Notes: generated by a model not told the origin, from the letters alone. Shown: positions 1 through 7,609, counted from the first letter of the stretch. The stretch is 64,000 bases of DNA from an uncultured Bacillota bacterium (GCA_963804645.1 CAWDRG010000009.1:1-64000); one strand, 5' to 3'. Made by a program: numbers and translations.

Positions 1-1290
1 GGACTGTAATGAAACTACTTGACTATTTGCGCATCCGCCCCGGTAAAATGCTATAGTTCCAATCGCCGTGGAAGGCGTCAGGCCGTAGCGTGATGGCGTT
101 CATCTGTTCGGCGGTCGGGGTCTGATTCTTCGGATACTTGCGGGTGTCGAGGACGCACCGAACCGCCAGCCCCGTAGCCGTTTTGGTGGCGGCAATGAGA
201 TTGACGATCGCCGCGTGCGTGAGCAGCGGACGGCCGCGCCACGTATGCGAGATGAAAGCGAACAGACGATGCTCAATCTTGTTCCACTTACTCGTTCCCG
301 GCGGGAGATGACAGACGGAGACCACCACCCCGGTGTCCCGGGCGAACTTGTGCAGCTCCCATTTCCAGAGGCGAAGGCGCGCGCCATTGCTCCCACCGCT
401 GTCGGCGGTGATGAGGAGCGAAGTGGCGCGCGGGTAATGTTTCCGTCCCTGGTCATGCCACCACCGCCGGATCGTGGCGACGGCAAATGTCGCGGTGTCG
501 TGATCCACGCCGACACTGACCCAGCCGAGGTTCCGCTTGAGATCGTACACGCCGTAAGGAATCGCCTTGCCCCGGGCGGCAGTGAGGAAGTCATGGACCT
601 TGACCGGTTCCGGTTGGCCCTGCGGCCGCCACGCGCGCCCGCCGTTCTTGAAGCGGCCCACCAGCTCTTTCTTCTTGGTGTCCACGGAAATGGCCGGCTG
701 CCCCCGCGCCAACTGCGCGGTGACGGCGGCGTTGATGTGCTCAAACTGCGCATTGCGATCAGGATGGCTGGCACCCTCCAACGTCTTTTGGTTCGCCTGC
801 AGACTATAGTCCAAGTCATGGAGCAGATGGGTCACCAACGTGTGGCTCACCGTATACCCGTGCGCCGTCAAGTCCGCCGCCAAGCGCCGCGTGCTCTTGC
901 ACGTCCAGCGCAGCGGGGACTCGGGGTCGCCCCGCGTGACCGGCTCCACCAACGCCTCCAGGGCGGCGGCCAGGCCCGGGACGAGAACGGTCAGCCGCTT
1001 CCGGCCCCCGCCCGCGCGTCTCACCCGTGTCGGCGCGAGCGCGGGTTTCTGCCGGATCTCTGCGAGCCCCCGCACAATCGTATTGCGAGCTAACCCGGTC
1101 GCCCGCGTAACCACCGCGATCCCACCGCGCCCGAGCGCCCGCGCTTCCGTCCCAGCCCACATACGTCGGTGCCTCTCGTTCATCGTCGGGAACAACGCGC
1201 GGTACTTCGTCCTGATCGCACGCTCAGCGTCCACATCATCAGTATCGGGGAAAAGAGAACAATAATCAAGTTATTTCGTTACGATCCCTC
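1..1290 (-). mobile_element. ISAzo13-family insertion sequence (left end probably runs a few bp off the window)
   Basis: Imperfect terminal inverted repeats flank the transposase: 1-27 GGACTGTAATGAAACTACTTGACTATT versus the reverse complement of 1261-1290, GAGGGATCGTAACGAAATAACTTGATTATT (21/27 match). Confidence 0.88.
23..1234 (-). CDS. ISAzo13-family (Rhodopirellula-type) DDE transposase
   Basis: 403 aa with family motifs GDPESPLRWT, ISVDTKKKE, TADSGGSNG, PPGTSKWNKIEHRLF and FHGDWNY. Confidence 0.95.
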   Translation of the reverse strand: MDAERAIRTKYRALFPTMNERHRRMWAGTEARALGRGGIAVVTRATGLARNTIVRGLAEIRQKPALAPTRVRRAGGGRKRLTVLVPGLAAALEALVEPVTRGDPESPLRWTCKSTRRLAADLTAHGYTVSHTLVTHLLHDLDYSLQANQKTLEGASHPDRNAQFEHINAAVTAQLARGQPAISVDTKKKELVGRFKNGGRAWRPQGQPEPVKVHDFLTAARGKAIPYGVYDLKRNLGWVSVGVDHDTATFAVATIRRWWHDQGRKHYPRATSLLITADSGGSNGARLRLWKWELHKFARDTGVVVSVCHLPPGTSKWNKIEHRLFAFISHTWRGRPLLTHAAIVNLIAATKTATGLAVRCVLDTRKYPKNQTPTAEQMNAITLRPDAFHGDWNYSILPGRMRK

Positions 1291-1410
1291 GACGGTGCAA
1301 CTGGCGATGCGCTTCGTGAGGAGGAACGCCTCGACGGCCTCACTCAAAGGGTGTGTATAGGCTTTATCAGCGGTTTCCGAGTCAGGCGCAACGGCTGAAA
1401 CCCGCGTCAC
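1291..1410 (-). pseudogene. N-terminal fragment of a probable tyrosine integrase, interrupted by the IS
   Basis: Manual translation VTRVSAVAPDSETADKAYTHPLSEAVEAFLLTKRIASCTV ends at the IS IR. LSEAVEAFLLxKR resembles helix 1 of the integrase SAM-like core-binding domain. It starts 8 nt after a tRNA 3' repeat. Confidence 0.6.
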
Positions 1411-1418
1411 AACTGGAC

Positions 1419-1470
1419 TGGCGGGCCCAGGTGAATCGAACACCCGACCAGAGGCTTAGGAGTCCCCTGC
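1419..1470 (-). repeat. tRNA-Arg(CCT) 3' fragment, att-like copy 4
   Basis: Matches 7516-7568 with one substitution and one deletion. Confidence 0.93.
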
Positions 1471-1759
1471 GCGGTGAACTTCAGGCGACGGACGACGGCC
1501 TACACCGATTCTGTAAGGGGTTCCACCGTCTCGACCCGCCCCGAGGCTGGTGCCGAAGAATAATGCGCCGGCTCATTCGCCGGCAGTCATGGCACAGTTC
1601 CAGCCCAACCTCGTGCGTTGTCCCGATCCCGCTACGAGCGCCGCTGGAATGAGTGAGCACCGGTACGTCCGGCGCTCTGTCGGCGAGGTAGAGGGGCCCG
1701 CGGAGACGCGGGCGAACGGCTCCTTGGTAGTGTAGCTCCAACTGCCCCTGGGAGACGCC

Positions 1760-3751
1760 GTGCACGACGCTTCCAACCCATCCGTACCCCCTCGCGAGTT
1801 ATCTCGCGCGGGCAAGATCATTCTGCTCTTGCTGGTGGCGTACGGCGTCGCGGTCATCTTGCCCGATACACTACGCCCTACCGCACTGTATCAGATGGCC
1901 TATTACCTCGAGGGGCTGCCGGAAGCGGTGACCAACGCGCGGCCCTCGGCTCCGCACCCGACGCCGGTTGGCTGGTACCCATTGGGGACGCTCGGCTTCA
2001 CGGCGAACAACGACGGCACCGTCACGTCCGTGGACGACTGCGGGGGTACACAACCCTGCGATGTGCCCGCGTGGAACACGCTGCAGGTGGGCGACCGGAT
2101 CGATCTCAAGAGAACGGGGATCAGCGATCGCCGAGCGGTGAACCAGATGGTGTTTGTCGCTCACGATCGGCCCGTAGTTCTCCAAGTCGCCCCCACACCA
2201 AACGGCGCCCCGGCGCGCGCGATCACTCTCATGCCGAGTTCCGAGGTGCTGCGATTCTTCACCAGCTCGTCGTCGCTCGAGGCCTGGACCCTCCTGCTTG
2301 ATCAACTGGGGGGCCTCTTCTTCATTGGACTTGCGGCGCTTTGTGTCTGGCGGCACCCCACGCGCATGGCCTGGGGATTGCTCCTGTACGCCGTGTGGTA
2401 CAACTCCGGACAGTACTTCGTGTGGTACGCAAACCTTCCCGTCGGAGCTCTTCGCTGGTTTGACTGGCTCCAGGCGATCGCTTCCGGCGCTGGCCTGACC
2501 GGGCTCTTGATGTTCGCCCTGCACTTTCCCCGCGATACGGTCGTGGGGTGGCGGCGACGCGTGGAACCGTGGCTTTTCGTACCGTTTCTAGCGCTGACAG
2601 GGCTGAGCCTATGGTCGTTTCGCAACTTCACCGCAGGCGTCCAGACCGAGCGCGCCTACGATGTCTACTACTATCTCACCTTCGCCATCTACTTGGCGGT
2701 CTTCGCCTTGTTCTTCCATACGTACGTAACCCAGCCCAAGGATCGACCCCGGATCCGGTGGGTCATCGTAGGCGCGCTGTCGGGTCTCCTGTGCTTCTTG
2801 TTCGCCGACGTCTATGAGGCGACGTCGATGCTCAACTGGCTTCCCTTCGCGCTCCCCGAGTGGGTGTTACAGGCACTCTACGCAGTAAACGTGGCCTTCC
2901 CGCTGACCGTCGCCTATGCGATCAGGCGTCACCGGGTGATCAATGTCCGATTGGTGCTCAACCGCTCGTTCGTCGTGGTCGTGAGCCTCGTCCTCGCCAG
3001 CGTTGCGCTAGCGGGGTTCGATCTCGCGTTTCACGCGCAAGTCGGCCGAAACGCCCCTTGGATCGCAGGCATCGCCGCGATCATCGGCGGAATGGTTCAT
3101 GAACGCCTGCGCGGGGTCGAGGACATCGTGGACTGGCTCTTTTTTCGGCGCTGGTATGTCGCCGAGCACGATCTGAAGAACACCGCGGAAGAGTTGGCCC
3201 AATCCACCAGCGTGGAGGAAGTCAACCGCGCACTGATCGATGTGCCCGCGGCCGAGCTCAACCTCACCACCGCAGGCTTGTTTGAGCGTCAAGCGGACGA
3301 GAGCTTCCGACGTGTGCATGCCACCGCGTCCTGGCCGGACACGTTCCTGCCGTCGCTCTCGGCGGGCGATCCGCTGATTACCCTCGTGAAGGACGTGCCC
3401 CTGGCGCTCCCCGATCGCTACTGGGAGCGCCAGATGCCGCCGTCGTCCCCCACGCTCGCGCCGGTACTCGCAGTACCGGTGGCCATCCGAGGGATGCTGA
3501 ACCGGATCGCGTTCTTCGGCCCCCACACCAACGACGAAACATTCGATCGCGATGAGTTGAATATCATCCGCAGGGTGGCGCGAGCTGCAGCCTTCGCCTA
3601 TACGGCATTGGACGCCGACGCACTGCAGGTCAAGAACCGGAAGCTCGAGGAGCAGTTGCGAGAAGCCCAAGCTTCAATGCTGGCCCAAAGTGACCATCGG
3701 GACACACCGCATGCTACCACCCCGAGCGCTGACGGCCAACCCGACGCGTAG
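1760..3751 (+). CDS. Multi-pass membrane protein with PDZ-like extracytoplasmic region and C-terminal GAF-like domain
   Basis: N-terminal TM, PDZ-like LQVGDRID motif, ~8 hydrophobic helices, and a GAF-like C-terminus (VLAVPVAIRG...GPHTNDETFDRDEL). Confidence 0.7.
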   Translation: MHDASNPSVPPRELSRAGKIILLLLVAYGVAVILPDTLRPTALYQMAYYLEGLPEAVTNARPSAPHPTPVGWYPLGTLGFTANNDGTVTSVDDCGGTQPCDVPAWNTLQVGDRIDLKRTGISDRRAVNQMVFVAHDRPVVLQVAPTPNGAPARAITLMPSSEVLRFFTSSSSLEAWTLLLDQLGGLFFIGLAALCVWRHPTRMAWGLLLYAVWYNSGQYFVWYANLPVGALRWFDWLQAIASGAGLTGLLMFALHFPRDTVVGWRRRVEPWLFVPFLALTGLSLWSFRNFTAGVQTERAYDVYYYLTFAIYLAVFALFFHTYVTQPKDRPRIRWVIVGALSGLLCFLFADVYEATSMLNWLPFALPEWVLQALYAVNVAFPLTVAYAIRRHRVINVRLVLNRSFVVVVSLVLASVALAGFDLAFHAQVGRNAPWIAGIAAIIGGMVHERLRGVEDIVDWLFFRRWYVAEHDLKNTAEELAQSTSVEEVNRALIDVPAAELNLTTAGLFERQADESFRRVHATASWPDTFLPSLSAGDPLITLVKDVPLALPDRYWERQMPPSSPTLAPVLAVPVAIRGMLNRIAFFGPHTNDETFDRDELNIIRRVARAAAFAYTALDADALQVKNRKLEEQLREAQASMLAQSDHRDTPHATTPSADGQPDA

Positions 3752-4216
3752 ACGCGCTATGGGGACGGACTGCTAGGCCCAAGCTAATCCAGTCGAGCCG
3801 TCATGCGCGACCGGCGATACCGACGGGCGGCGCCGCCAGAAGGCCCATTCTGTAAGGCGCTCCACCCATCTCGACCCGATCGGGGTGGACCCGAAACGAC
3901 CTGCCAAGACCCCTTAGTCCGGCTCATCACTCGGTGGGTTGTCCCGTTCATGCCGCGCCAAGGCGCTCAGCGCCGCTTCCGATCACCTCAAGGCGGTCCG
4001 CCACCGCTGGGGGGTGAATTCACACGATTGGAACTGCGTCATCCTCTCCCGCAGTCTTTGGGACCGTCTCCCGGCTTAATCGGCGTGTACCATCGCTCGC
4101 GTCACCTTGGAACCCCGTCCCCCCACCGCACGCCGAAGCAGGAAGACGTGGCGGAGATGTGCAAGGACGAATCGTGCGACCAAGGTTGCGATGCGGTCTG
4201 GCGCGGGCATAACCTC

Positions 4217-5296
4217 GTGGTGCGATGGATCGTTAGCCTCATGCTAGCTTCGACGCTGCTCCTTGCAGTCGTCCTGCCCGTGTTCCCCGCGTCGTCAAGC
4301 CTTGCCCCGTTGCTGGCCGGGGTGACGCAGTCCGTCGCGCTCGTGCTGGCGAAAGATGCCAATGGAGAAACCCTTGCGTCTGGGACGGCGTTCGTCGTGG
4401 ACCGTAGCGGCCTTCTCGTCACAGCTTTGCACGTCGTCGACGCCGCACCCCAGGTTGTCTTGGTGCTGCCCGGGTCTCCTCCTCTCCGCGCGGACGTGCT
4501 TGGAATCAACGCGGAGCATGACGTGGCCCTGCTCCGCGTCTCGGGCGCGCCCCGCCAGGACCTGCCCCCACTGGCGCTGAGCGATGTCAGCGCGGTGCGC
4601 GTCGGCGACGGCGTTGTCGTGCTCGGGTATCCGCTACCTTCTCCGCAGAACCCTGCGCTCACGGTAACGCAGGGGATCGTCAGCGCCCTCCGGACGCAGG
4701 AGGGATTGATCCAGATCGACGCGGCCGTAAACCCCGGCGACAGCGGGGCGCCTGTGCTCACGCTCGACGGTCGGGTGATCGGCATCGTCGACGCGTCGGT
4801 GAAAGGGGCGCAGCAGCTTAATCTCGTCGTCCCCATCAACTTTGCGCAACCCCTGATCGAGCGCGCGGCCACCGCCGGGGCGCTCGTCACCCCTATGACG
4901 TTACCGCTCACCCGGCTGACTCCGGTGACCCTAACGTACCAGAGTCAGGAGTTCGGCTTCGGCGCGCGCCAAGCGCTGCTGGGCGTGGCCTGCGCCACAC
5001 CCTCGCCTGACGCCCTTCTCCTGGAAGACGTGAACGTGGCGTTCGAGGCGCAGGGGGCGCTTCACGTGATCACGTGGCTCTCGTGGGGGAAGGGGGCCCC
5101 TCTAAACAGTCCATTGGCGTTCGCGCGGTTGGATGGGACTTCGGTCAGGAAATACACGGGGACCTTGACTCAGCTCAGCGTTCGTCCTGCCATCGTGTGC
5201 CTCAACTACGAGGCCTGGAACGACACCGCTCCGGTCGGGCTGACGTTCAACGTGGTGTTCATGCTAGGGTACCGGAGCTTCACCATCCCGCCGTAG
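4217..5296 (+). CDS. Secreted trypsin-like (S1C/HtrA-type) serine protease; start codon approximate
   Basis: Signal peptide and catalytic motifs TALHVV, HDVALL, NPGDSGAP. The ORF-track extension to 3803 looks non-coding. Confidence 0.85.
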   Translation: MVRWIVSLMLASTLLLAVVLPVFPASSSLAPLLAGVTQSVALVLAKDANGETLASGTAFVVDRSGLLVTALHVVDAAPQVVLVLPGSPPLRADVLGINAEHDVALLRVSGAPRQDLPPLALSDVSAVRVGDGVVVLGYPLPSPQNPALTVTQGIVSALRTQEGLIQIDAAVNPGDSGAPVLTLDGRVIGIVDASVKGAQQLNLVVPINFAQPLIERAATAGALVTPMTLPLTRLTPVTLTYQSQEFGFGARQALLGVACATPSPDALLLEDVNVAFEAQGALHVITWLSWGKGAPLNSPLAFARLDGTSVRKYTGTLTQLSVRPAIVCLNYEAWNDTAPVGLTFNVVFMLGYRSFTIPP

Positions 5297-5394
5297 CCGC
5301 GCTCACGCGTCCGGCGCGGGTGCTCCGCCGAGACGTCGGGTGCGGCCGGTGGGTCTCATGCTTCCACTGAAACGTAGATCAGGGCGCCGCGCCC

Positions 5395-5485
5395 GAGGAA
5401 ATGCCTCCATAGCCTCGGCAATGGGGTGAGCAGGGGCTTTCCCGGCGGTTTCCGAGTCAGGCGGAACGGCTGAAACCCACATCAC
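5395..5485 (-). pseudogene. Second eroded integrase N-terminal remnant
   Basis: VMWVSAVPPDSETAGKAPAHPIAEAMEAF is homologous at DNA and protein level to 1321-1410 and also starts 8 nt after a tRNA repeat. Confidence 0.55.
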
Positions 5486-5493
5486 CACTGACT

Positions 5494-5548
5494 TGGCGGG
5501 CCCGGGGTGAATCGAACACCCGACCAGCGGCTTAGGAGGACCCTGCTC
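5494..5548 (-). repeat. tRNA-Arg(CCT) 3' fragment, att-like copy 3
   Basis: 52/55 identical to 7516-7570. Confidence 0.95.
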
Positions 5549-5588
5549 ACCTCGCTTCGACCCAACAAGTACACGTCGGATTAGGCTA

Positions 5589-5627
5589 TTCAAGAATCTT
5601 GAACGCATAGCGCGCGTGTGATACAAT
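5589..5627 (+). promoter_or_regulatory. vapBC promoter with palindromic operator
   Basis: TTGAAC (5599-5604)-N17-TACAAT (5622-5627) with TG extension. The perfect inverted repeat TTCAAGA-A-TCTTGAA (5589-5603) overlaps the -35. Confidence 0.65.
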
Positions 5628-5656
5628 TAGATTCATTCGTACTACAATCGGGAGGT

Positions 5657-5941
5657 ATGCAAGTGCCCAAGAGCGTGCGGCTCACGCCCGAGCTTGAGGT
5701 CACCCTGGAGCGTGCGGCTGCCTCCAAGGGGGTGCCGGAATCGCAGGTCATCCGTGAGGCGCTACAGCAGTATTGCGAGGCAGCACTCGGCCAGCAACCA
5801 TTGCGCGAGCGTCTGAGGTATGCGATCGGAGCGATCCAGGCCAAGGGTCGCCCGGCTCAAGGAACCAGCAAGCCCGTGCCCCGATCCCGCTGGGAAGGAA
5901 AGGAATTCGTCCGGCTCCTTCGCGCCCGGGGCGAGAAATGA
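5657..5941 (+). CDS. vapB: Ribbon-helix-helix (CopG-like) antitoxin
   Basis: KSVRLTPELEVTLERAAASKGVPESQVIREAL RHH pattern, GGAGGT RBS (start may be GTG 5663), ATGA overlap with the PIN toxin. Confidence 0.85.
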   Translation: MQVPKSVRLTPELEVTLERAAASKGVPESQVIREALQQYCEAALGQQPLRERLRYAIGAIQAKGRPAQGTSKPVPRSRWEGKEFVRLLRARGEK

Positions 5942-6345
5942 CCCTGGCTGATACAGGCCCCCTAGTCGCACTGATCGACCCAAGAGATCCGAATCACCGG
6001 CTATGCGTAGACGCACTTGAACGGTTGTCGTCGCCATTTGTCACCACATGGCCCGTTTTCACCGAGGCAATGTACTTCCTCGGCGACGCGGGTGGCTGGG
6101 CCGGTCAAGTTCCGCTCTGGCAGATGCTCCGACGGGGCGACCTCACCATTGTGGAAAGCTCGAAAGCAGCCATGCGGCGCACGGAAGCGTTGATGGAGAC
6201 GTATCGGGATCTCCCAATGGATCTAGCCGACGCATCGCTTGTAGCCCTCGCCGAGGAACGCGGATTCATGAGGATCTTTACCCTCGATAAACATTTCCAA
6301 GCCTATCGTCTCCATGGTCGCAAGCGCTTCGCCGTTATTCCCTGA
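5938..6345 (+). CDS. vapC: PIN-domain toxin
   Basis: MTLADTGPLVAL...VFTEAMY...MDLADASLV...IFTLDKHF carries the PIN acidic residues. Confidence 0.93.
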   Translation: MTLADTGPLVALIDPRDPNHRLCVDALERLSSPFVTTWPVFTEAMYFLGDAGGWAGQVPLWQMLRRGDLTIVESSKAAMRRTEALMETYRDLPMDLADASLVALAEERGFMRIFTLDKHFQAYRLHGRKRFAVIP

Positions 6346-6375
6346 CGGGGTGATTCAAATCCATCAAACAACTAC

Positions 6376-6430
6376 TGGCGGGCCCGGGGCGAATCGAACA
6401 CCCGACCAGAGGCTTAGGAGGCCTCTGCTC
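6376..6430 (-). repeat. tRNA-Arg(CCT) 3' fragment, att-like copy 2
   Basis: 52/55 identical to 7516-7570. Confidence 0.95.
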
Positions 6431-6657
6431 ATCCGCCCCTCGGGACGCCTTGATTGACACGGGTTCTAGCGGGGCGAGCATGGACTTTCGTGCGTCTTGA
6501 TCGACTCCTATCACCTCCCGATCGGATTGCTGCTCTTGCCGCGACCTTGTCGGGCACGGTAGGCTTTCTGTTGTCTCCTCCATGCACATCGCTTGGAACA
6601 GTAGCGCGCGTATCTTCGGAGCGGCGGTGACCCGCAGGACGTGACTCCGTTCCGCGA

Positions 6658-7503
6658 TTAGGCCAATCCGTGGCGATCCAGCGCTTCCCGCATCTGGCTG
6701 AGGAACTCTGTGCCCATTCGGCGCCCGTTCGGGAGTTGGTCGTCCCGGTCCCAGCGCCACGTTGCGACCATCGCCAACATCAAAACCCGGCACTCGCCAA
6801 GCAGGTCTTGATTAGCAGCCAGATAGTGCTCGCTGACCTCTTCGGGCGCATGGGCGACATCGAACTCAACAGGCCCACGGCAACAGGTCTCGAGGTCTAC
6901 CAACAGCAGCCCTTTCTTCGTCCTGAGCAAATTGCCCGAATGCGGCTCGCCGTGCAGCAACTGCTCGTCGGCGCCGCGGTCGCCGATCGCGCGCCTCAGG
7001 CTGCGCAGCGTGTTGCTTAGAAGCTCCCGGTCCGCATCTCCGAGCTCCGGAGTCTGGGCGCGGTTGCCAACCAGCCACTGCGCCTCCGCGACTCGATCCG
7101 TGAAGTGCGGCGCAGTCACATCGATCCGCCGCATGCCAGCGTGCAGCCGCTCGAGTGCCTGCGCATACTCGGCTGGCGAGACGTCTTGATGGGATACAGG
7201 CTCGTAGTAGGTCCACAGCGTGACCGCGAACCCGTCACGCACGTAGACGCGCGGCTCCACCCGAGGCTCAAGCTCAGCCACCGGGCTATCGGTTTCCGCG
7301 AGCCGCCGACCGACCTCGACTTCGAACTCTGCGCCAGCCTGATGTACTACATGCGCGACCCGAGCAAGAACGTCACAAGGCAGCAGGCGCACAGCGAGCC
7401 GGTTCGAGTCGTGAAGAACGACCGCGTCATCGACCCCCAGGTCAAGCGCTGAGGCAGTCGACATAGCGGCACCCACCGCACGCGGAACTTCTGATGCCTT
7501 CAT
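6658..7503 (-). CDS. Aminoglycoside phosphotransferase-like (APH family) kinase
   Basis: LHGEPHSGNLL and VDLE motifs, GAGG RBS. Confidence 0.88.
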   Translation of the reverse strand: MKASEVPRAVGAAMSTASALDLGVDDAVVLHDSNRLAVRLLPCDVLARVAHVVHQAGAEFEVEVGRRLAETDSPVAELEPRVEPRVYVRDGFAVTLWTYYEPVSHQDVSPAEYAQALERLHAGMRRIDVTAPHFTDRVAEAQWLVGNRAQTPELGDADRELLSNTLRSLRRAIGDRGADEQLLHGEPHSGNLLRTKKGLLLVDLETCCRGPVEFDVAHAPEEVSEHYLAANQDLLGECRVLMLAMVATWRWDRDDQLPNGRRMGTEFLSQMREALDRHGLA

Positions 7504-7515
7504 CGTCGCCTCGGT

Positions 7516-7591
7516 TGGCGGGCCCGGGGTGAATCGAACACCCGACCAGAGGCTTAGGAGTCCCCTGCTCTATCCACTGAGCTACGGGCCC
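7516..7591 (-). tRNA. tRNA-Arg (anticodon CCT)
   Basis: GGGCCCG TAGCTCAGTGGATAGAGC A GGGGA CTCCTAA GCCTC TGGTC GGGTG TTCGATT CACCC CGGGCCC GCCA; cloverleaf with encoded CCA. Confidence 0.96.
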
Positions 7592-7600
7592 GTCGCACGT

Positions 7601-7609
7601 ATTATAACA
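7601..7609 (-). promoter_or_regulatory. Extended -10 promoter of tRNA-Arg(CCT)
   Basis: TGTTATAAT, 9 nt upstream of the tRNA 5' end. Confidence 0.7.

Follow-up and report, generated by a model that had tools for sequence, protein, structure and literature searches.

How does a row of short accessory-gene units come to stand behind a single tRNA gene, with a copy of the 3' part of that tRNA between one unit and the next? This question is raised by the array behind the tRNA-Arg(CCT) gene near the start of contig C9 in the genome of an uncultured Bacillota bacterium (G000; GCA_963804645.1), of which the first 64 kb (CAWDRG010000009.1:1-64000), hereafter termed the window, were analysed. A first-pass annotation of this DNA had read the array as a series of non-autonomous, gene-sized cassettes captured one after another at the tRNA, functionally comparable to an integron. 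In this work, we demonstrate that the array is built on tRNA repeats, that it carries remnants of integrase genes whose intact relatives occur elsewhere, and that it varies between related genomes. We conclude that the array records insertions that recurred at a tRNA hot spot and does not represent a new integron-like system; in its specific form, namely a fossil tandem array of small integrase-borne elements, residues resembling cis-mobilizable elements (CIMEs), we assign this reading a probability of roughly 0.7.

Genomes, loci and searches

The G000 assembly comprises 22 contigs and is 96.8% complete, with 4.2% contamination. Genomes are designated by G-numbers, and loci or contigs by L-numbers. 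L014 corresponds to G004, L016 to G025:C7, L019 to G031:C33 and L020 to G013, and three loci belong to the genome under study, namely L001 (C10:187000-206814), L030 (C9:482398-498090) and L031 (C6:87595-95956). The tRNA fragments of the window starting at 6376, 5494 and 1419 are named f2, f3 and f4, respectively. The tRNA and stub query was run against 41 genomes, i.e., G000 and 40 relatives, including the unpublished G034. Short Logan contigs (depth 2-10) were the basis of a survey of joints at the level of individual sequencing runs; the runs containing the stretch are peat metagenomes.

A tRNA-Arg(CCT) gene followed by displaced copies of its 3' part

As the first-pass annotation had reported, the window contains one intact tRNA-Arg(CCT) and three co-oriented copies of its 3' part (Table 1), the gene being identified by ARAGORN and Rfam, and the copies by a repeat search and blastn. 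The four copies were placed by the repeat search at 1417-1472, 5493-5548, 6375-6430 and 7515-7570, and the small size of the units was likewise borne out, with spacings of 4076, 882 and 1140 nt. In a chance control, a 45-nt pattern allowing up to 3 mismatches was matched 3 times in the window, whereas 100 shuffled versions gave no match, the count omitting the copy at 1419 owing to an indel; f4 is the tRNA segment from anticodon stem to CCA with this one indel. ARAGORN also calls a 73-nt tRNA-Arg(CCT) at 6376-6448. We consider this call a pseudo-tRNA fragment, since Rfam does not recover it at E<=1 and its 5' half is unable to pair with the acceptor 3' strand.

The proposed search for the repeat across the genome and to the left of the window yielded two more fragments, both on C10 and 4-10 kb from the end of that contig, thus giving a total of six co-oriented copies on C9 and C10 (one intact tRNA and five fragments). 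The array is therefore longer than previously described. The fourth unit, said to run off the window, starts with an integrase stub cut by an insertion sequence (IS).

Alignment of the fragments revealed that the block of identity runs from the anticodon stem to CCA, and that its left edge differs fragment by fragment, which is expected if every arriving element supplies its own sequence on the 5' side of the crossover. This anatomy (an anticodon stem-to-CCA block, a fragment-specific 5' edge, and an integrase gene directly 3') fits classical integration into tRNA genes; insertion at the anticodon loop is reportedly a typical class in K. Williams' survey of 2002.

The distal end of the unit nearest the tRNA could also be recognized. 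The 60 nt 5' of f2 (6435-6494) form a conserved element end, the f2 region being 82% identical to L134 over 119 nt and to G013 (L020) over 116 nt, in both cases beside tRNA-Arg fragments and with cargo other than the phosphotransferase gene of the window. The retention of these 60 nt in both sources indicates that the distal end of this unit is a genuine element end. An inverted repeat is contained in the element end (L134 60-140; window 6435-6500; L020 8774-8833). A 20-nt likeness between the region 5' of f2 and the integrase stub is too short for interpretation, and a possible seventh, eroded fragment at about 3757-3811, between the 663-aa gene and the protease gene, is not claimed, as the fragment profile found nothing there.

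Table 1. Positions of the tRNA gene, its fragments, the integrase stubs and the genes of the array in contig C9 (window positions) and contig C10.
Feature	Position	Strand	Basis or remark
ISAzo13-family IS, transposase ORF 23-1234	1-1296	-	PF07592 2e-135; transpos_ISAzo13 562 bits, cut-off 200
Integrase 5' stub	1297-1418	-	first ~53-60 codons, ..HPLSEAVEAFLLTKRIASC, then cut by IS
att fragment f4	1419-1472	-	53 nt, 96.2% to tRNA over 1419-1470 (blastn); nhmmer E 3.6e-17
663-aa multi-pass membrane protein	1760-3751	+	
Trypsin/HtrA-like serine protease ORF	3803-5296	+	Trypsin_2 8e-28
Degenerate integrase 5' stub	5400-5493	-	..HPIAEAMEAF.., then unrelated sequence
att fragment f3	5494-5548	-	55 nt, 94.5% to tRNA (blastn)
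vapBC-like pair: RHH antitoxin-like ORF and PIN toxin (toxin probably 5938-6345)	5618-6345	+	PIN 5e-10
att fragment f2	6376-6434	-	60 nt, 93.3% to tRNA (blastn)
APH-family phosphotransferase	6658-7503	-	Pfam APH 3.5e-13
Intact tRNA-Arg(CCT), integration target	7516-7591	-	ARAGORN; Rfam tRNA 61 bits
Further fragment	C10:202356-202403	co-oriented	blastn, profile search
Further fragment	C10:196644-196694	co-oriented	blastn, profile search

Integrase stubs directly behind three of the fragments

In another genome of the order (L019), an intact 332-aa integrase with domains PF13495 and PF00589 abuts a tRNA-Arg(CCG). A tblastn search with this protein matched the sequence behind f4 (window 1294-1479; query 1-62, 45% identity, E 3e-5), which in turn displays 83-85% nucleotide identity to stubs at 5424-5546, at C10:196535 and in G004. 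The stub behind f3 is too degenerate to be detected by tblastn with the L019 integrase; nevertheless, it is recovered as a 107-nt repeat at 77%, and by blastn at 84.6% over 123 nt to 1349-1470. Behind the fragment at C10:196644, tblastn revealed residues 35-73 (C10:196486-196602) and 282-302 (C10:196471-196527), i.e., a copy with an internal deletion. The three stubs share a stretch of about 100 nt, 77-85% identical, reading ..(K/E)KA..HP(L/I).EAVEAF(L/F)LTKR(I/V)A.., and are found directly behind the CCA end in 3/5 fragments (1419, 5494 and C10:196644). One is cut by an IS, one internally deleted and one truncated. Conversely, neither translation nor tblastn with the L019 integrase revealed anything integrase-like behind the intact tRNA, f2 or C10:202356.

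The claim that the window lacks an intact integrase thus held, as none of the 11 PF00589 matches of the genome falls within the first 64 kb of C9, but the stubs behind 1419 and 5494 had been overlooked. Within the whole G000 assembly, tblastn found no intact copy of the L019-type integrase; C11 harbors a frameshifted near-full copy and a C-terminal piece. The remainder of the IS-cut integrase was not found anywhere in the assembly (tblastn), and the C10 end shows no integrase. The IS responsible for the cut was delimited by means of approximately 85% identical copies on C15 and C19, and its terminal inverted repeats could be read; C9 starts exactly at its outer end (window 1-1296). In one Logan contig (run X3, depth 7), the IS end at 1287 is joined to 1455, in the f4 anticodon loop, leaving out the stub and most of f4, a pattern resembling a population variant with a deletion next to the IS.

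An integrase family with few intact members

Intact relatives of the stubs are 291-332 aa long and carry PF13495 and PF00589, which is Xer-like in size and domains. Scores against the NCBIfam XerC/XerD equivalogs were 170 bits for the L019 integrase and 159 for that of L126, with a cut-off of 335, so that the family is Xer-like in architecture only. L126 is a metagenome contig in which a 100% identical tRNA-Arg(CCT) is followed by an apparently intact integrase (71% identical to L019) and a DUF3854 gene, which indicates that live elements of this family exist in such communities. Three other tyrosine recombinases of G000 look intact, with only 27-30% identity to the L019-type family.

Among the 12 family copies seen in genomes, one is intact (G031:C33), and the breaks of the others range from residue 51 to 293. 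Expressed as residues of the L019 integrase, the copies extend to 51 in G031:C24, 60 in G004, 62 in the G000 window (the IS-cut stub at 1419), 74 in G026, 84 in G037, 105 in G013 and 167 in G002; residue 73 is joined to 282 in the G000 C10 copy and 161 to 281 in G038; the G000 C11 copy has a frameshift near 293; and the G025 copy shows, on reading the alignment, an apparent in-frame TGA near codon 61, with no full-length frame in the ORF list. The G002 copy, from the same genus, corresponds to a truncated 257-aa ORF with Phage_int_SAM_4 at the tRNA-Arg position. A truncation hot spot or a retained P' arm, suggested by stub ends within about 35-60 nt of one another in the third and fourth units of the window, on C10 and in G004, was rejected as an ascertainment effect, because the wider set of breaks is spread over 51-293 and the 182-nt query saw only the first ~120 nt. 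The G025 copy belongs to an 8.2-kb element at tRNA-Ala(TGC) (L016, 6943-15215), which is bounded by 49-nt att repeats that are 100% identical, and carries a second integrase, 41% identical, near its far end.

Given the stubs and the intact relatives beside tRNA-Arg(CCG) and tRNA-Arg(CCT), we consider that the three stub-bearing units arrived with their own integrase. These units are residues of ordinary islands, an outcome that the first-pass annotation had itself named as refuting its reading, and the serial, site-specific insertion at one tRNA proposed by the first-pass annotation is upheld by the six co-oriented copies, the stubs and the intact relatives.

Probable continuation on C10 and comparison within the genus

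In G004, a single contig runs from homologues of C10:159-166 kb directly into homologues of C9:1.7-16 kb in the same orientation; from this synteny, the end of C10 most likely adjoins the start of C9, a join between which other contigs could lie. Measured through this presumed join, the stretch between conserved flanks is about 48 kb in G000, versus about 8 kb in G004. The L001 part of C10 contains two IS110-family transposases, an IS4-like element, a group II intron reverse transcriptase and a frameshifted ISAzo13 copy, as well as a PatG-like subtilase split over three ORFs (S8, PatG_D and PatG_C).

The tRNA and stub query matched 30/41 genomes, with the highest number (6) in G000. The tRNA-Arg(CCT) is 100% identical in G004 and G002, and the side upstream of it is syntenic with G000 in G001, G002, G003, G004 and G006. 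Downstream of tRNA and stub, nothing is common with the window array in 5/5 same-genus genomes, except the 663-aa gene in G004; the comparison of relatives proposed earlier thus revealed variable content at this side of the tRNA. In G004, the stub behind the tRNA is succeeded by an amidohydrolase gene and a GFO/IDH gene that is split, and a single fragment stands 2.8 kb from the tRNA; past this fragment, a methyltransferase, a DUF5666 gene and the 663-aa homologue are found.

Metagenome contigs and the integrity of the assembly

Direct repeats in a metagenome assembly raise the suspicion that the array was produced by the assembler, through collapse or misjoining, or by binning. The number of contigs and the contamination of the G000 assembly, the start of C9 at an IS end and the variable presence of IS (L135 lacks the frameshifted IS found at L001 11508-12786) would be in keeping with such an artefact. 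Against it, the fragments differ by several substitutions and are shorter than typical reads, and three separate metagenome contigs of the Joint Genome Institute (JGI) reproduce the arrangement across f3, f2 and the junction of tRNA and phosphotransferase gene: L131 (2048-5597, 99.2%), L136 (5290-6567, 99.9%) and L129 (6622-9366, 97.9%). A Logan contig (X3 record 23) also spans f2 (6021-6468), and the fragment at C10:202356 was confirmed in L121 and L135. An assembly or binning artefact is accordingly scarcely credible.

The same material revealed variation in the population. L123 is 99.3% identical to G000 over a glycosyltransferase gene and the C10:196644 fragment, but neither flank of this stretch agrees: an unknown 436-aa ORF stands upstream in L123, together with an additional fragment and a stub, and the 12.6 kb of IS and intron DNA present in G000 (C10:183382-195955) are missing. 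The break between the two sequences falls some 60 nt before the gene start and roughly 290 nt away from the fragment, and not at an att site. No clean att x att joint was found among the short Logan contigs. Two joints, 1381 to 5492 and 6442 back to 5423, were considered as excision products and rejected, as they show extra letters and match an L134-like relative.

Cargo genes of the window units

The genes previously listed as cargo are present, i.e., the APH-family gene, a vapBC-like pair, and a membrane protein plus protease, but two of their assignments were weaker than first described. The 663-aa membrane protein has no Pfam or NCBIfam match, the GAF domain being only an Atlas lead (10-28% of nearest-cluster members carry it), and the antitoxin-like ORF matches RHH_1 at E 0.0035, below the Pfam cut-off, with a weak RelB-like match. 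The 663-aa gene is 76.9% identical at the nucleotide level over 2006 nt to that of G004 (L014 2916-4904). The protease, with paralogues on C21, C13 and C17, probably starts well downstream of 3803; the vapBC-like pair has no other copy in the genome. The GC content of the array ranges from 0.59 to 0.69, with a genome value of 0.69, and no relaxase or conjugation genes were found among the ORFs scanned. Positions 1505-1538 and 3843-3878 carry a 35-nt motif, with the core CCTTACAGAAT on the minus strand, that is absent from the rest of the genome and scores 43 versus a maximum of 29 in 500 random genomic pieces. Both copies are a few hundred nt upstream of + strand genes (those for the 663-aa protein and the protease), and may serve the regulation of both genes or be left over from the end of an element.

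The phosphotransferase gene is the cargo with the widest distribution. Its segment 6645-7513, i.e., the gene with about 12 nt on either side, has an 86.5% identical, frameshifted copy at C9:482772-483652, inside the tRNA-Lys(TTT) array and in opposite orientation relative to its tRNA. Only the gene is shared between the Arg and Lys arrays, and not an att-bounded cassette. No match at E<=1e-20 was obtained in 93 other genomes of the order. Relatives elsewhere number more than 385, and the 80 loci retained among them display 68-87% amino acid identity and come from Actinomycetota, Chloroflexota and Dormibacterota, among others, which gives the gene the look of widely traded cargo. A tRNA was found within about 4 kb in 5/80 of these loci. 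In L068, a Chloroflexota metagenome-assembled genome (1118-2070), a homologue with 78% amino acid identity starts 22 nt past a tRNA-Gln-like 3' half, the same layout as tRNA-Arg and APH in the window. T-arm-like motifs stand within 400 nt of the gene in 4 loci, with a CCA-type tail behind 3/4, and L045 and L051 have T-arm-plus-CCA fragments within this distance. The gene is thus often island cargo, not tied to one att site.

These cargo genes bear on the integron analogy of the first-pass annotation, which in its strict form would imply a platform with a single resident recombinase, one primary site, and promoterless cassettes that all point the same way. Small one-gene units between short repeats, and a TIGR02249 (integron integrase) match of 62 bits for an intact relative of the stubs, are the points in its favor, but this score is far below the cut-off of 265, and no intI was found nearby, nor any IntI, attI or attC in the array. 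Further, the repeats are tRNA halves and not attC-type imperfect palindromes, gene orientation is mixed, with 1/4 genes or gene pairs running with the tRNA, the phosphotransferase gene is reversed in the Lys array, and the stubs behind 3/5 fragments show that units had integrases of their own. The analogy fails on every defining feature tested; a true integron-like platform is very improbable, and we do not retain the interpretation of the units as non-autonomous integron-like cassettes.

Arrays at other tRNA genes

Co-oriented partial copies (at least 85% identity and 28 nt) were found near 16/50 tRNAs of the genome, the total being 51 ARAGORN calls minus the pseudo-tRNA. We tabulated 30 units in 15 arrays, counting the third Arg unit once and omitting the tRNA-Val(TAC) case and the contig-gap unit; their median length is about 4.0 kb, 9/30 are shorter than 2 kb, and PF00589 remnants were present in 2/30 and an intact integrase in 0/30. 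The tRNA-Lys(TTT) array (L030) has fragments after 2.6, 6.4 and 6.5 kb and no integrase; its first unit holds the frameshifted APH copy and an acyltransferase, and its second a glutamate dehydrogenase and an isochorismatase-family gene. In the tRNA-Thr(TGT) array (L031), four fragments delimit units of 3.5, 1.7, 1.1 and 1.8 kb, which hold a beta-lactamase-fold protein, an S41 peptidase, an aldo-keto reductase and an unknown gene, and the sequence past the CCA end is common to three fragments. A tRNA-Ser(CGA) array is also present. At tRNA-Ala(TGC), units 2 and 3 share 3.6 kb at 98.9% from the first base, which points to either a tandem duplicate or a double insertion.

A bolder proposal is that the arrays at about 16 tRNAs, most of whose units hold one to a few genes, are a working gene-capture system and not just graveyards, in which short Xer-like integrases, supplied by transient elements, use every tRNA-half repeat in a lox-like manner. 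Circular excision, reshuffling and transfer of single-gene units that carry no integrase could follow, as a functional analogue of integron cassettes. We regard this as improbable.

Decay of integrase-borne elements or mobile cassettes

In the reading that we prefer, small elements with a two-domain, Xer-like tyrosine integrase would have inserted serially into tRNA-Arg(CCT), with the crossover in or near the anticodon loop. Each insertion would rebuild the tRNA and displace a 3' fragment of it; later, IS insertion, internal deletion or truncation would destroy the integrases along with the rest of the backbone, so that one or two cargo genes per unit remain between att scars. The array would extend leftwards from 7591 and, by synteny, into the last ~10 kb of C10. 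Every unit is bounded by tRNA-derived repeats (attL and attR being retained in sequence), with only integrase stubs left. The order of events is inferred, as is the loss of the integrase from the APH and vapBC units, which on this account did not lack one from the start; these two units may instead have arrived or moved in trans.

Several observations weigh against this reading. The APH and vapBC units, which are nearest the tRNA and would be the youngest under simple push-down, show no integrase trace by tblastn, and it is the distal units that keep stubs. Cargo genes look intact and some are tight against the att ends: the start codon of the phosphotransferase gene is 12 nt past the tRNA end, and one tRNA-Thr(TGT) unit is a single aldo-keto reductase gene starting about 20 nt past its fragment. 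Identity between the fragments and their tRNAs has remained at 91-100%, even where an entire integrase gene has disappeared. The C10-C9 join is drawn from synteny. Finally, the 663-aa gene is inside the array in G000 and past the last detectable fragment in G004, which excludes a simple ordered stack, and one has to admit that elements also entered at distal fragments or that fragments were lost.

Some of these points would be met if the units were still mobile CIME-like or lox-like cassettes, any of which, when flanked by two att sites of tRNA-fragment type, the integrase of a newcomer could excise, reinsert or co-transfer; arrival or movement in trans would then account for the APH and vapBC units, which have no stub. 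Besides these two units, with their intact, closely fitting cargo and well-preserved fragments, this possibility could draw on the architecture of the family (Xer-like, with core-binding and catalytic domains and no arm-binding domain), on the live-looking L126 integrase at an identical tRNA-Arg(CCT), in a contig of the same series as L121-L123, which are 96.5-99.5% identical to G000 over shared stretches, on the different neighbour unit and extra fragment and stub of L123, on the recurrence of the 60-nt end 5' of f2 in two sources with different cargo, and on the L068 gene directly behind a tRNA-Gln-like 3' half. Conversely, a 96.8%-complete assembly holds no intact integrase of the family, the L123 breakpoint is not at an att site, the second APH copy is at a different tRNA, reversed, with the gene alone in common rather than an att-to-att unit, and 16 different tRNAs with arrays are beyond one trans-acting integrase. 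Hence we consider mobile cassettes unlikely, although, if true, they would represent a new route for single-gene movement.

Under the preferred reading of a fossil array, this locus documents the pile-up of accessory genes (a kinase, a toxin-antitoxin pair, a protease and a membrane sensor-like protein) behind tRNA genes in an uncultured peat bacterium, and the rapid loss of the integrases that delivered them. Island finders based on integrases would probably miss such units. Moreover, tRNA callers can mis-call fragments, as ARAGORN did at 6376-6448; this class of error is the subject of a published paper (PMC9897764, in excerpt).

Comparison with known systems

In a limited literature search, no paper was met in which arrays of single-gene cassettes, free of integrases and built on tRNA halves, are described as a working system. 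Integrons resemble the array in their rows of gene-sized units between short recombination-site repeats, but IntI, attI and a Pc promoter are missing here, tRNA halves are not attC sites, orientation is mixed, and the units have left integrase stubs of their own.

Of the traits of tDNA-integrated island arrays of the Islander type, the locus displays an intact tRNA gene at one end, co-oriented displaced 3' fragments at the far ends of the units, and content that varies between relatives; the integrase is represented by broken stubs at 3/5 fragments. Closer parallels are provided by elements targeting small-RNA genes. In Dehalococcoides, as described in the portion of the source drawn on here (PMC3146451), many direct repeats of the target 3' end follow one small-RNA gene, ssrA, and the islands are tandem and strain-specific, as in the window array; 15 islands without an integration module are discussed there as possible CIMEs or as fixed. 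Those arrays involve a serine recombinase, a 20 bp repeat and tmRNA, whereas a tyrosine recombinase, about 55 nt and a tRNA are involved here. In the tycheposon islands of Prochlorococcus, according to excerpts of the corresponding preprint (10.1101/2020.12.28.424599), tRNA-targeted elements are likewise stacked, newcomers push older ones inward, and fragmented integrases and partial tRNAs are scattered, as here. Phylum and habitat differ, the sole gene noted here in this connection is the DUF3854 gene beside the L126 integrase, and kinship is not implied.

A further likeness is to CIMEs and tandem accretion, as in the ICESt1-related elements of Streptococcus thermophilus, for which the consulted part of the source (PMC5704250) describes older elements that lose integration and transfer genes and keep their flanking att sites. 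The window array, known from sequence alone, differs in that no conjugation or mobilisation genes were seen, its units hold one or two genes, its target is the anticodon-to-CCA segment of a tRNA, and its integrase is of a short Xer-like type; what both have in common is one target gene whose 3' end has served repeatedly for site-specific insertion.

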